The notes beneath the pieces were generated by a model. That model was not told the DNA's origin, did not search any database, and was given only the letters and a program-made list of their open reading frames with translations. Positions 1 through 64,000 of a DNA stretch of 64,000 nt are shown here, piece by piece. The stretch covers positions 4,128,001-4,192,000 of the forward strand of contig OZ243927.1 of NCBI GenBank assembly GCA_965213925.1. The letters run 5' to 3'. A program made the position numbers and the translations under genes. Positions within the stretch are counted from its first letter, which is position 1. The number at the start of each line of letters is the position of its first letter. This stretch comes from Trueperaceae bacterium. Lineage in GTDB: Bacteria > Deinococcota > Deinococci > Deinococcales > Trueperaceae.

Positions 1-1285
1 TCGCGACGAGTTGCCACAAGCTCGCCGCGCCGCCGTTGATGTCGCCGCCGACGTAGTTGGGGTTGTAGCGCTCCATGTCGGGGGCGCTCATGGCGTGCTT
101 GGCTAAGACGCGCTCTTTGAAACCAGGGGCGAAACGCTCCAACTGCGCCTCGATTTTTTCGGTCATGTCACCTTCAAAGCCGTTCGGCACGTGACAATAC
201 GCCCACAAAGTCTCTTTGCCCCCCGGCGCTCTCGTTTCGTCGAAGGGGCTATGCTGCGCGACGAGAACGTACGGATTTGTCGGCGGCTTGCCGCGCCCGA
301 CCTCGCGCTCGGACTCAGCGATCTCTTCGAAGGTTCCGCCTAAGTGGACGGTGCTCGCCCGCAAACACGCCTCCTCTTTCCAGGGAACCGGGCCGTCTAG
401 CGCGTAATCTAACTTGAAAATCCCTGCGCCGAGGCGGTAGCGCTCCAACCAACCTCTATACTGTGACGGAAATTCGTCCCCAGCAACTTTCAAAAGCTGC
501 TTCGCCGAGAGGTCGAAAATCACCGCTTTCGCTTCGGGTACATCTTTAAGTGAGTTGACCTTGACGCCCGTATGCACCTCGCCGCCGAGCGAGCAGAAGA
601 GGCTCGTTAGCGCCTCCGCTAAGGACGCCGCGCCGCCTTTGGGGAAGGGCCAGCCGACGGTGTGAGCGAGCATGGAAAAAACTAGACCAATCGCGGAGGT
701 GGCGGGCGACTCGAGCGGCAAAATCGCGTGCGCCGCCGCGCCTGCAAAGAGCGCTTTGGTGCGCTCTTCTCGAAACAACTTACTGAGGAGCGTCGCAGGG
801 GGCAACGCTCGCACGCCGAACCGCGCTAAGACGATAGGATGATCTGGAATACGCACCAGCGGACCCATAAAGTCGCTCATGAGCTTGTCCCAGTCGCGCA
901 CGAGCGGGCGCAAAAGGGCGTCATAAACTTCGGCGTCTACGCCGAGCCCTGCTTTGGTCGCTTCGAAGGAGCGCTCGAGCACCCCCACCCCGTCATCCAG
1001 CGGATGCGCCAGCGGCGCGCTGCTATGAACCCAGGTCAGCCCATGTTCGTCAAGAGGCAGCGTGCGAAAAAAGGGTGAGCCGACGCCGAAGGGGTGAATT
1101 GCCGAGCCCGTGTCGTGCCTAAAACCGGGCAGCGTCAGTTCTTCGGTGCGCATCCCGCCGCCCGTTTTGTCTTTCGCTTCTAAGAGCGCAACTTTGAGAC
1201 CCTGCTGCGCGAGGGCAATAGCAGCGGCGAGCCCGTTAGGACCGGAGCCGACGACCACTACATCTTTGGGGGCGTCGTAGGACAT
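1..1285 (-). CDS. NAD(P)/FAD-dependent oxidoreductase, phytoene dehydrogenase-like family (3' end outside window)
   Basis: Manual translation from ATG at 1285: MSYDAPKDVVVVGSGPNGLAAAIALAQQGLKVALLEAKDKTGGGMRTEELTLPGFRHD (Rossmann GxGxxG). Not in the ORF track, consistent with running off the left edge. Confidence 0.85.
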   Translation of the reverse strand, partial: MSYDAPKDVVVVGSGPNGLAAAIALAQQGLKVALLEAKDKTGGGMRTEELTLPGFRHDTGSAIHPFGVGSPFFRTLPLDEHGLTWVHSSAPLAHPLDDGVGVLERSFEATKAGLGVDAEVYDALLRPLVRDWDKLMSDFMGPLVRIPDHPIVLARFGVRALPPATLLSKLFREERTKALFAGAAAHAILPLESPATSAIGLVFSMLAHTVGWPFPKGGAASLAEALTSLFCSLGGEVHTGVKVNSLKDVPEAKAVIFDLSAKQLLKVAGDEFPSQYRGWLERYRLGAGIFKLDYALDGPVPWKEEACLRASTVHLGGTFEEIAESEREVGRGKPPTNPYVLVAQHSPFDETRAPGGKETLWAYCHVPNGFEGDMTEKIEAQLERFAPGFKERVLAKHAMSAPDMERYNPNYVGGDINGGAASLWQLVA

Positions 1286-1358
1286 GGGGACAGCGTACCG
1301 CAAGTTGTCAGCAAATAACGTCGGGAATGAGCTTACTGGAGCACTTCAGCACAGGTAA

Positions 1359-1402
1359 TACCGTTTCAGGGTAATCTCCATAAGAATGACTCGGAAACGG
1401 TA
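1359..1402. mobile_element. 44-bp MITE-like remnant
   Basis: Perfect 9-bp TIR TACCGTTTC/GAAACGGTA flanked by TAA on both sides (1356-1358, 1403-1405). Confidence 0.55.
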
Positions 1403-1444
1403 TAAGCAGGCCTCCCTCGGCGGTAGAGGGGGTAAGCCGGGACC

Positions 1445-2965
1445 TCAGCGCCTTCTCCCCAGCGAATAGTTCGGCGCGTCTTTCGTGATGGTTACGTCGT
1501 GTGGATGTGACTCCTGCAAGCTCGCCTGCGTAATCTTCACGAACTGCGTCTGTGTTTGCATCGTTCTGATGTCGGGCGTGCCGCAGTAGCCCATCGCGCT
1601 CTTTAAGCCGCCGACCATCTGGTAGAGCACGTCGCCCACCGGTCCCTTGTAGGCGACCATCCCTTCGATGCCTTCGGGCACGAGTTTCTTGGCGTCCTCT
1701 TGGAAGTACCTGTCGGCACTCGAGTCCGACCCGTCGCCCGCCATCGCGCCTAAGCTACCCATACCCCGGTACGCTTTGTAGCGCCGGCCGTCCCTTAAAA
1801 TGTTCTCGCCAGGCGACTCAGAGGTTCCCGCCAACATCGAGCCGACCATGACCGAACTCGCGCCCGCCGCGACCGCTTTGGGTACGTCGCCTGTCATCTT
1901 GATGCCGCCGTCCGCGATGAGGGGCACGCCCGCGACGTTCGCAATCTGCGCTACATCCATAATCGCCGTGAGCTGCGGCATCCCGACGCCCGTCACGACG
2001 CGCGTCGTGCAGATGCTCCCCGGACCGATGCCGACTTTGACCGCGTCCGCGCCACGTTCAATCAGCGCTTCCGCCGCCTCTGCCGTGGCGATATTGCCCG
2101 CCACCACGTCCACTTTGTAGCTCTCTTTGAGGTACTCCAAAGCGTCTAAAATCCCCTGTGAATGCCCGTGCGCGCTGTCTAATACGAGCGCGTCCACGCC
2201 CGCTTTGACTAAAGCCGCCGCCCTCGCCTCGAAGTCCTGCGACACGCCCACCGCCGCTGCCACGCGCAGACGTCCTAAGGAGTCTTTAGCAGCATTGGGA
2301 TACTCGAGCTTCTTCGTAATATCTTTGATGGTAATAAGCCCCTGCAACATAAAGCTGTCGTCCACCACGAGGAGCTTCTCGACTTTATGCTGTTTCAAGA
2401 TTTCCCGAGCTTCCTCTAAGGTCGTCCCGACCGGAACCGTCACGAGGTCTTCCTTCGTCATCAAATCCTCGACGCGCTTGCCGTAGTCCTCTTCAAAGCG
2501 CAGGTCGCGGTTCGTGAGGATGCCCACCAAGCGCCCGCCCTCTTCGACGATCGGCACGCCCGAGATGCGGTACTCCGCCATGAGCGCGTCCGCCTGGGCC
2601 AAGCTCGCGTCGCGGGTCAGCGTGATGGGGTCGACGATCATCCCCGCTTCGGAGCGCTTGACCTTCGTCACCATCTCCGCTTGCTGCTCTAAGGGCATCT
2701 TTTTATGAATCACGCCGACGCCGCCCTGCCGCGCCATCCCGATCGCCATCTGCGTCTCGGTTACGGTGTCCATCGCCGACGAGCTGACGGGAATGTTGAG
2801 GGGTACGTTGCGAGAGAAGAGAGAGGTCGTATCTACGTCTCTAGGCAAAACCTGTGAGTGGGCGGGGACCAAGAGGACGTCGTCGAAAGTCAGAGCTTCG
2901 CTGCGGAACTTGTCGGTGAGTTTGTGCGGGGTCTCGGAGACCTCGCGCATCAGTTTTGTCGCCAT
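1445..2965 (-). CDS. guaB: IMP dehydrogenase
   Basis: [10 protein letters not shown] start, CBS pair, catalytic [24 protein letters not shown]. Confidence 0.98.
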
Positions 2966-3049
2966 AAATGACTCCTCGTCTTGTGTAGTGGAAGGTGCAG
3001 AAGGTCAACGGGCTACTCGCCCTAGTAGAGATAATTATAGCGCTCCTAC

Positions 3050-62367: not shown

Positions 62368-62598
62368 GTACACCGTTAATTAAGTATCGATACTCTCTTA
62401 CTGATGTCACCCTGTTCACGCAGTAGAGCGAAGCTTCGGCGAAGGCGTAAGGGTCTCGGTTGACTACGTCAAAACTTCGTAACTTTCAATCTCAGCAAGT
62501 GGAGTCAGCAAGGGCAGAGATTCTTACGCTCCACGGAGCCTGCCCTGGTGAGGGTTCCGCTCAGAATGACATGCTTTATTTTTAACTTAACGCTGTAC
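62368..62598 (-). mobile_element. MITE family A copy 5 (reverse orientation)
   Basis: CTAGTACACCGTTAA...TTAACGCTGTACTAG. Core very similar to copy 4 (GTCACCCTGTTCACGCAGT...CAGAATGAC). Confidence 0.9.
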
Positions 62599-62604
62599 TA
62601 GTGC

Positions 62605-62648
62605 AAAAAGAAGAGGTGATAGATAGACGCTATCACCTCTTCTTTTTT
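62605..62648. terminator. Bidirectional terminator after lipA
   Basis: AAAAAGAAGAGGTGATAG...CTATCACCTCTTCTTTTT. Confidence 0.8.
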
Positions 62649-62657
62649 ACTCGACTC

Positions 62658-63599
62658 CTAACTCAAACCGACGTTGTTCTTCTCCAACGCCCGCTCCGCT
62701 CGGTACGACGAACGCACTAGCGGTCCCGACACGACCTCGACGAAACCTTTAGCGAGTCCTAGCTCGCGGTAGCGGTTGAAGTCTTCGGGTGGAACAAAGC
62801 GTTCGACAGGGAGGTGGCTCGAGGTGGGGCGGAGGTACTGCCCGAAGGTCACGATGTCCACGCCGACCTCGCGCAAGTCGTCCATCGTCTGGACGATCTC
62901 CTCGTCCGTCTCGCCGAGCCCGAGCATCAGGCTGGTTTTAGTGAGCACGTCAGGGCGGGAGAGTTTGGCGTACTCCAAAACTCGCAGGGTTTGCTCGTAG
63001 CTCGCGCGGGGGTCGCGAACGGGGTGAGTGAGGCGTTTGACGGTCTCCAAGTTTTGCGCGTAGACCTCAACACCGGAGTCTAAGACGAGTTGCACGTGCT
63101 CGGTTTTCCCCTGAAAGTCAGGTGTCAACGCTTCTACGGCGGTCTCGGGGTTGACCTTTTTAATTTCGCGCACGGCGCTCGCGTAATGCGCCGCGCCGCC
63201 GTCCGGTAAGTCGTCGCGGTCGACCGAGGTCAAGACGACGTACTTTAAGCCCATCAGCTTGACCGAGTCAGCAGCTAAGCGCGGCTCGTCGGGGTCCAGG
63301 CGTCCTCTTGGGTTGCCTGTATCTACCGCGCAGAAGCGGCACGCCCGCGTGCAGACCGAGCCCATCAGCATGATCGTCGCGGTGCCCGCGCTCCAGCACT
63401 CCGCGATATTAGGGCACATCGCCTCTTCGCAAACAGTGGAGAGTCCGTGCTCGCGCACCGTTTTCTTGACCTCGCCGTAGCCTTCGCCGTTTGGCAGTTT
63501 AACCTTGAGCCAGTCCGGTTTGCGCTCGCGCGGCAACTTTTCGGCGTCTTTGCGTTGAATACCGTTTTTGATGACTTTAATGTCGTCTAACTTGATCAC
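62658..63599 (-). CDS. lipA: Lipoyl synthase
   Basis: [44 protein letters not shown]. Confidence 0.98.
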
Positions 63600-64000
63600 G
63601 AAAGAACCTCCTTGCAGGTATCATCTGGTCATCGACGCACTCAGTTGAAAAGCGTTGTCTAGCGCGTACGTTATGGGATGATCCTGCATAATCCAAGTTT
63701 TTTGGTGCTAGACAATCTACGTTCTGCACTTGGACGTCAAATACATGCTTGAATTCTCTTATGAGCTTCGGCTTGACCTCTTCGAGCGGCACGTGTCGTC
63801 CGGCGAGCTTCGAAAGGCTCGTCACGCCTTTGTCCGCTAAGCCGCATGGCACGATATAGGTGAAATGCTCCAAATCCGTGTGGACGTTCATCGCGAAACC
63901 ATGAAACGAGACGTTGCGCTTGATCGCCACGCCTATCGCCACGACCTTCTCATCACCGACCCACACGCCCGCGTAGCCAGGGCTGCCTTCGCTCTCGAAC
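63577..64000 (-). CDS. lipB: Octanoyltransferase (5' end outside window)
   Basis: [14 protein letters not shown]......[18 protein letters not shown]. Confidence 0.92.

Follow-up and report, generated by a model that had tools for sequence, protein, structure and literature searches.

Highly iterated palindromes (HIPs) are known from cyanobacteria, in which HIP1 (GCGATCGC) raises transformation, an effect that depends on methylation (Kamoku and Nielsen, bioRxiv 10.1101/2024.09.10.611283). In the phylum Deinococcota, orphan CTCG(m6A)G methylation (m6A, N6-methyladenine), with no cognate endonuclease listed, is tabulated for Marinithermus hydrothermalis (94.6%), Meiothermus chliarophilus (94.1%), and M. 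ruber (99.5%), the enzymes being M.Mru1279II, M.Mch9957IV, and M.Mhy14884I (Blow 2016, PMC4752239, Tables S3/S4). The same study describes a CTCGAG C5 methylase with Vsr in Nocardia, together with motif clusters at the replication origin (oriC). Here we examine the palindrome CTCGAG in a 64,000-nucleotide stretch of a Trueperaceae bacterium, also of the Deinococcota (GenBank GCA_965213925.1, contig OZ243927.1, positions 4,128,001 to 4,192,000; hereafter the window), in the source genome (G000; 4.75 Mb, 58.4% GC, 96.9% complete), and in its relatives. Compared with 16S genes carried on plasmids, that of the source genome is closest to Deinococcus (83–84%). The word is real and behaves in a HIP-like way, but it is not a HIP by the strength and periodicity criteria of Xu et al. 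(PMC5861425).

What is already known is CTCGAG methylation in Meiothermus and Marinithermus; the available parts of Blow 2016 (PMC4752239) report this methylation and not over-representation. Full-text searches outside subscription journals turned up no mention of CTCGAG over-representation in Deinococcota. The available parts of Rodriguez-Cruz 2026 (PMC13756078) and of bioRxiv 10.64898/2026.06.24.734251 do not mention CTCGAG enrichment, and the preprint supplements may list Deinococcota motifs. An earlier note on the window, made from its sequence alone, knew of no such report for the phylum, which holds for over-representation but not for methylation.

CTCGAG in the window and the genome

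The window contains 98 dispersed CTCGAG sites (710..62823, unstranded), a local sample of the 7,299 in the genome (1.54/kb). Seventy-nine lie within or touch genes, and 19 are in the 8,589 bases of non-coding DNA, at 18934, 25361, 26002, 28764, 29275, 29379, 30591, 31442, 33830, 34680, 34699, 34957, 45787, 46138, 47883, 51057, 51164, 59542, and 61164. The earlier note was close in its tally (about 95 sites, with about 20 expected from composition; we compute 20.1 at a GC of 58.3%), and the 15 intergenic coordinates it gave are all exact and all among these 19. The excess falls as the null model gets stricter: window expectations are 47.2 (Markov order 2) and 80 (order 4), dinucleotide shuffles give 40.0 ± 7.0 (maximum 61 in 100 shuffles), and genome-wide observed/expected ratios (O/E) for orders 0 to 4 are 4.89, 2.78, 2.43, 2.10, and 1.33. 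CTCGAG ranks first among the 64 palindromic hexamers of the genome by over-representation, most other palindromes being purged (e.g., GGCGCC 0.03, GAGCTC 0.05), and it is evenly spread (111–179 per 100 kb). Enrichment is limited to the six bases, with G/C flanks making it slightly stronger; the 5' neighbour is G at half of all sites, and GCTCGAGC has an order-2 O/E of 4.8 compared with 2.43 for CTCGAG.

Leu-Glu codon pairs cannot account for all of this, as the earlier note had argued. Gene calling of our own, which yielded 4,227 genes (81% coding) and overlooked some of low GC, shows that in-frame Leu-Glu sites, 3,552 of the 5,370 coding sites, exceed within-gene synonymous shuffles by just 1.22× (2,908 expected), while off-frame sites do so by 7.5× (423/56) and 4.35× (1,395/320). 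Intergenic DNA holds 1,528 sites in 891 kb (order-2 O/E 4.07), or 924 in 518 kb when every open reading frame of at least 100 aa is masked (O/E 4.42), and the ratio is 5.2–8.3 when CTCGAG is masked in model training. It is the most over-represented hexamer in this DNA, at a density (1.72–1.78/kb) slightly over the genome mean.

Low-GC genes carry sites too, again as noted earlier, and are even denser: 1.97/kb in genes of the lowest 5% third-position GC, compared with 1.27/kb in the top quartile. Synonymous one-off neighbours are scarce (CTC GAA 0.17, CTT GAG 0.15, CTG GAG 0.56), unlike CTA GAG (1.17). Leucine codons in this genome follow the preceding base, TTA/TTG making up 4–20% after a purine and 13–62% after a pyrimidine, with a peak before G, and the small in-frame excess is partly due to this switch.

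The sites are also conserved. We aligned 600 kb of one sister species (G001, 84% identity) and 527 kb of another (G002, about 82%), from 840 kb and 800 kb, to the source genome, with other palindromic hexamers of at least 25 aligned copies as controls. CTCGAG is the best-kept palindromic hexamer in both: 573/851 (0.67) vs 1,608/4,385 (0.37) for controls in G001, and 440/723 (0.61) vs 937/3,703 (0.25) in G002. In intergenic DNA, too, CTCGAG outdoes the controls in retention (0.72 vs 0.44, n=94), and the codons GAG, TCG, and CGA survive better within sites than elsewhere. Single synonymous changes within otherwise intact sites are approximately 8–15× rarer than in control codons (6/311 and 4/308 differences), and transversions and A>G changes are likewise suppressed. 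The flanks are no better conserved (0.97–1.17), so there is no regional repair.

Frame-0 site pairs with 0, 1, 2, and 3 mismatches number 616, 73, 143, and 85, compared with 25–37% one-off pairs among controls. Three-way polarisation, which covered 87 kb and in which parallel gains and multi-step losses are inseparable, gave 9 gains from 2,660 two-off ancestors, exceeding all 20 controls. A six-base toy model reproduces the background, and with a symmetric fixation bias of S=2 it yields 7.4× enrichment and an identity of 0.73; the observed identities are 0.71 (136/192) and 0.66 (90/136), which gain-only (0.49–0.51) and loss-only (0.82–0.86) versions miss. The model would therefore put the scaled fixation bias at about 2 per site, and within it selection is inseparable from biased conversion or uptake.

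Spacing is near Poisson (coefficient of variation 0.99). A power spectrum over 3–200 kb, a simpler test than that of Xu et al., showed no periodicity (p=0.51 vs 200 random placements), and there was no helical phasing. The dnaA-dnaN spacer (oriC) holds four sites in 928 nt, outside the top 8 of 2,186 spacers, and the DnaA-box regions of relatives hold none or one.

Relatives and candidate methylases

Across 41 genomes of the order, CTCGAG density is 0.9–2.9/kb in families f3 and f4 and 5.2–6.4/kb in f5, where the order-2 O/E is 16.0 in 100 kb. In one f5 genome (G028, 420 kb), all frames are enriched 8–18× and spacers 51–75× (masked model), with Leu-Glu pairs at 2.3×. Samples of 20–240 kb from nine further genomes show off-frame or non-coding excess in most, most weakly in G013. 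In family f2 (G025, G029, G033, G037) the word is strongly avoided (0.03–0.27/kb), the opposite of its sister families.

Within the source genome's own family (102 genomes searched, 101 used, G092 left out), we took CTCGAC as a control word and called a genome enriched if its CTCGAG/CTCGAC ratio was at least 2. Thirty genomes are enriched, 14 with a ratio of at least 10, and the source genome has 2.75; the remaining 71 have a median of 1.09. The ratio overstates enrichment in some high-ratio genomes because CTCGAC is itself avoided there, and absolute density in the enriched set is 0.6–2.8/kb. In five genomes (G014, G052, G053, G054, G042) CTCGAC/GTCGAG is nearly gone (about 100–350 per strand) and CTCGAG stays at 0.7–2/kb, so TCGA looks purged except within CTCGAG. 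Further afield, CTCGAG is the top hexamer (3.2–3.9×; by frame 1.7, 4.3, and 3.8) in 100 of the 348 kb of Allomeiothermus silvanus plasmid pMESIL01.

The window encodes a predicted orphan gamma-class N6-adenine DNA methyltransferase of 569 aa (49307..51016, minus strand; N6_Mtase + Eco57I + M_Eco57I_C), with motifs DPSFGGG and NPPF intact and no endonuclease gene beside it. Its predicted structure (predicted local distance difference test score 90.9) folds like CamA and M.BseCI. In four plasmid homologues the gene overlaps with a partner gene downstream of it; these partners have no tblastn match in the source genome, and the PF04555 profile has no match there either, but is equally silent on the control set. 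Other methylase candidates in the source genome are type I, IIG, III, Dam/Dpn-like, and N4-methylcytosine enzymes. No C5 methylase (PF00145) was found in this 96.9% complete genome, and Vsr (PF03852) was found in one of 41 genomes, a different one. A Dam-family methylase lies in two pieces (G000:C1:902968-903866), and a stop codon interrupts one match to a type I methylase (G000:C1:2621025-2622323).

Homologues of the window methylase occur in 24 of 30 enriched and 23 of 71 other family genomes. A second type, PaeR7I-like (63% to a protein that bears the name modification methylase PaeR7I), occurs in 6 of 30 and 0 of 71 (6 of the 102 genomes searched), and a named M. ruber DSM 1279 protein belongs to this family. 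PaeR7I/XhoI specificity is CTCGAG. The five PaeR7I-like copies other than that of G002 have no endonuclease gene within roughly 1.5 kb on each side. The type is found in four of the six enriched genomes that lack the window family, compared with two of the 24 that have it, and one or the other is present in 28 of 30 enriched vs 23 of 71 other genomes (genera: 12/13 vs 10/21). This complementary distribution suggests that the window enzyme may methylate CTCGAG, a prediction for and against which we see the case as evenly balanced. In a 16-row tree, which leaves out partial sequences (G009 and one G012 piece), window-family copies of the non-enriched G008, G010, G012, G015, and G022 form a separate clade (98/99). 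A third type, M.TaqI-like, has strong matches in 3 of 41 genomes, not including the source genome. A stand-alone homologue, L066 (PDB E 2e-126), lies at G030:C1:33946-35172, in a genome where CTCGAG is enriched; the target of TaqI methylation is the TCGA core.

In both sister species, the locus of the window methylase gene is a hot spot for integration. In G001 (C4:2902349-2904235) the first approximately 20 codons match, the remainder is a 46–48% paralogue, and a foreign island follows. In G002 (C4:631408-641566) an approximately 8.4-kb element splits the window-type gene at its NPPF motif; it carries a pair of tyrosine-recombinase-like genes along with transposases and a methylase of the PaeR7I-like type. 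In several genera (L028, L032-L036) window-family methylases are orphans that lie between what we take to be dnaG-like and/or V-ATPase subunit I-like genes, which suggests an ancestral methylase locus.

Competing explanations

The explanation towards which we lean, tentatively and somewhat short of an even call, is that CTCGAG is an over-represented, conserved word acting as a HIP1-type self-mark. Adenine methylation of CTCGAG would be the work of an orphan enzyme, in this genome the product of 49307-51016, and DNA bearing the word would be favoured in uptake, recombination, or conversion between chromosome copies. Deinococcus and Thermus are polyploid and competent, and ComEC is present in five of five genomes examined; a reader of CTCGAG in uptake or recombination would follow by analogy with HIP1. 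The earlier note had proposed a HIP1-like, methylation-linked system. The word is indeed palindromic, genome-wide, frame-independent, and conserved, but it is weaker than HIP1 and lacks periodicity; the methylase link is suggestive and plausible given the orphan candidate in the window, but CTCGAG specificity and marking are predictions.

Several observations weigh against the self-mark explanation. The nearest solved fold to the window enzyme is CamA, which methylates a site other than CTCGAG, and its end-to-end alignment with the PaeR7I-like type, at 24% identity, does not fix its specificity. By genus, the window family is found in 10/13 enriched vs 10/21 others (p=0.15), so alone it is neither necessary nor sufficient, and p-values for the methylase association are overstated because kin are not independent. 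G019 has a close window-family copy yet a ratio of 1.16, an exception to the clade pattern; G014 and G042 (92% and 87% complete) are enriched with neither enzyme found; and the window-type genes of G009 and G002 are split. Neither type was found in f5 (0/4; 0/7 genomes), nor was any methylase common to four f5 genomes and the source genome among the N6_N4 and Eco57I family matches compared. A. silvanus is enriched, yet its five PacBio motifs exclude CTCGAG, and ComEC is also present in G025, a genome without the word. With regard to conservation, the CTC codon is not better kept inside sites in G001 (0.72 vs 0.75), and per-base divergence at coding sites is barely reduced (0.90–0.95 of expectation). 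Sites are either unchanged or altered at no fewer than two bases, a pattern which the simple model underpredicts, and it accounts for the shortage of one-off states in part only.

In the main rival, too, the sites are functional, but the methylases have a different role: CTCGAG would be maintained by a reader that needs no methylation, be it a protein of the nucleoid, of repair, or of uptake, and methylases would be secondary shields, repeatedly acquired since a word that cannot be purged exposes the genome to XhoI/PaeR7I/TaqI-type endonucleases. This would suit the three unrelated methylase types at different loci (window type, PaeR7I-like, and TaqI-like in G030), the failure to find such an enzyme in f5, the enriched A. 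silvanus with no CTCGAG methylation detected, and the purging of most other palindromes from the source genome, which implies strong restriction pressure. However, no candidate reader protein was identified, and the word has neither periodicity nor an oriC cluster; for A. silvanus the evidence comes from a single plasmid (100 kb), whose enrichment may be left over from a methylase lost recently, and f5 may hold an unrecognised methylase. We consider this rival possible, if rather doubtful.

Quite unlikely, in our view, is a neutral by-product of biased repair (an Elhai methyl-directed ratchet or very-short-patch repair), in which the sites do nothing. It would fit the scarcity of synonymous one-off neighbours such as CTC GAA and CTT GAG, the bimodal frame-0 pairs (616 identical and 228 two- or three-off, with 73 one-off), and the gains from two-off ancestors, and biased conversion is formally the same as selection in the toy model. 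Against it, the source genome has no C5 methylase and only one of 41 genomes has Vsr, the flanks are not protected, transversions and A>G changes are suppressed as well, and neither a gain-only nor a loss-only model reproduces the identity observed.

An artefact of Leu-Glu codon usage plus avoidance of other palindromes is very improbable. Most coding sites are in-frame Leu-Glu at a mere 1.2×, the genome-wide order-4 O/E is 1.33, and CTCGAC avoidance inflates the ratio in some relatives, but the 4–8× intergenic and 4–7× off-frame excess and the best-kept rank between species refute this unless most "intergenic" DNA is missed genes, and masking long open reading frames gives the same result. 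A promoter element or methylation switch ahead of -10 boxes is rejected, with equally slight probability: the three sites that the earlier note put 8–15 nt upstream of a -10 box do lie ahead of a TANNNT, namely 25361..25366 (minus strand, 8 nt before TAGACT), 26002..26007 (minus strand, 14 nt before TAAACT), and 31442..31447 (plus strand, 15 nt before TACACT), and intergenic density slightly exceeds the mean, but there is no fixed spacing genome-wide, 1,022 -10-like boxes have 17 sites at 8–15 nt upstream vs 44 at 16–38 nt (p=0.77, i.e., chance), 1,885 start codons show no peak in density ahead of them, and about four fifths of sites are inside genes. The one histogram peak, where a box ends in the two bases with which the site begins, is seen with control words as well.

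A second word and the comparison with known systems

A second iterated word, AAGAGGT/ACCTCTT, is non-palindromic and has 98 copies in the window (1..64000, unstranded) and 5,851 in the genome (O/E 13 at order 0, 6.8 at order 2). It is enriched 3–21× in every frame and 4.1× in intergenic DNA, is the best-conserved heptamer in genes between the source genome and its sisters, and is genus-specific, with about 6,000 copies per genome in three genomes of the genus and 63–998 in 38 others. There was no Chi-like strand polarity in 400-kb bins, although replichores cannot be delimited from so weak a GC skew, and there were no inverted pairs of the kind found in DNA uptake sequence (DUS) terminators. 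At oriC (G000:C1:679011-679938) seven copies flank nine DnaA boxes, making this spacer the top of 2,186 (p=6e-5, uncorrected); G001 and G002 have no copy in the 978 nt after dnaA, where G002 also lacks DnaA boxes. Contig C2 (127,737 bp) has CTCGAG at 1.64/kb, as in the chromosome, and just 29 AAGAGGT (0.23/kb, compared with about 1.27), as though it had come from a relative that is not of this genus, and contigs C3-C5 nearly lack both words. An Rfam search of the window gave no matches, and scans of viral and genome contigs gave nothing informative.

A broader reading, which we think unlikely, is that Deinococcota outside Deinococcus would have an ancestral HIP-type CTCGAG self-mark independent of cyanobacteria. 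Orphan m6A methylases from two or more unrelated families would serve it interchangeably, and in this genus AAGAGGT would be stacked on it as a second tier. Density would be held at about 1–2.5 per kb, or 6 per kb in a single family, and the two words would form an order-level (CTCGAG) and genus-level (AAGAGGT) identity code for DNA exchange.

What HIP1 does has been debated for 30 years on the basis of a single phylum. The question becomes testable with a second phylum in which strength is graded (ratio from about 1 to 29 within a family), methylases are swapped, and culturable PacBio-typed members exist. For example, Meiothermus ruber, which is methylated, and A. silvanus, in which no CTCGAG methylation was detected, allow one to ask whether the word needs its methyl mark and acts in uptake or recombination. 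CTCGAG content and methylation could also matter practically for transforming these bacteria. The source genome is a moderate case, and f5 is the stronger showcase.

The DUS and uptake signal sequences (USS) of Neisseriaceae and Pasteurellaceae have thousands of dispersed conserved copies, denser in less constrained genes. CTCGAG resembles them in these respects but is a short palindrome, and AAGAGGT is the closer look-alike. In E. coli, Dcm/Vsr drives word bias, a likewise methylase-linked word excess, but neither a C5 methylase nor Vsr was found in the source genome. The same holds for the Nocardia system (PMC4752239), which shares the motif but has oriC clusters with no CTCGAG counterpart here. 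The Thermales orphan methylases share both motif and phylum, with no cognate endonuclease listed (PMC4752239); the source genome lacks the PaeR7I-like and TaqI-like types and carries a third family of predicted specificity.

By the accounts in the available parts of Elhai 2015 (PMC4390886) and Xu 2018 (PMC5861425), CTCGAG differs from HIPs in being a hexamer in another phylum, in its order-2 O/E (2.43, compared with 16–317 for HIPs and a cut-off of >16 which Xu et al. set for octamers), in lacking periodicity (p=0.51), and in having scarce rather than conserved one-off variants. Its candidate enzymes are of the m6A gamma class with no C5 enzyme, and a second, non-palindromic word stands alongside it. 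Like HIP1 and the alternate cyanobacterial HIPs, however, it is a palindrome at 1–2 copies per kb (the top one, at 1.54/kb, in a HIP range of about 0.2–2.7), occurs in genes in all frames and in spacers with only a small in-frame excess (1.22), co-occurs with orphan methylases, and is conserved across genomes, three of its four codons being clearly better kept inside sites.

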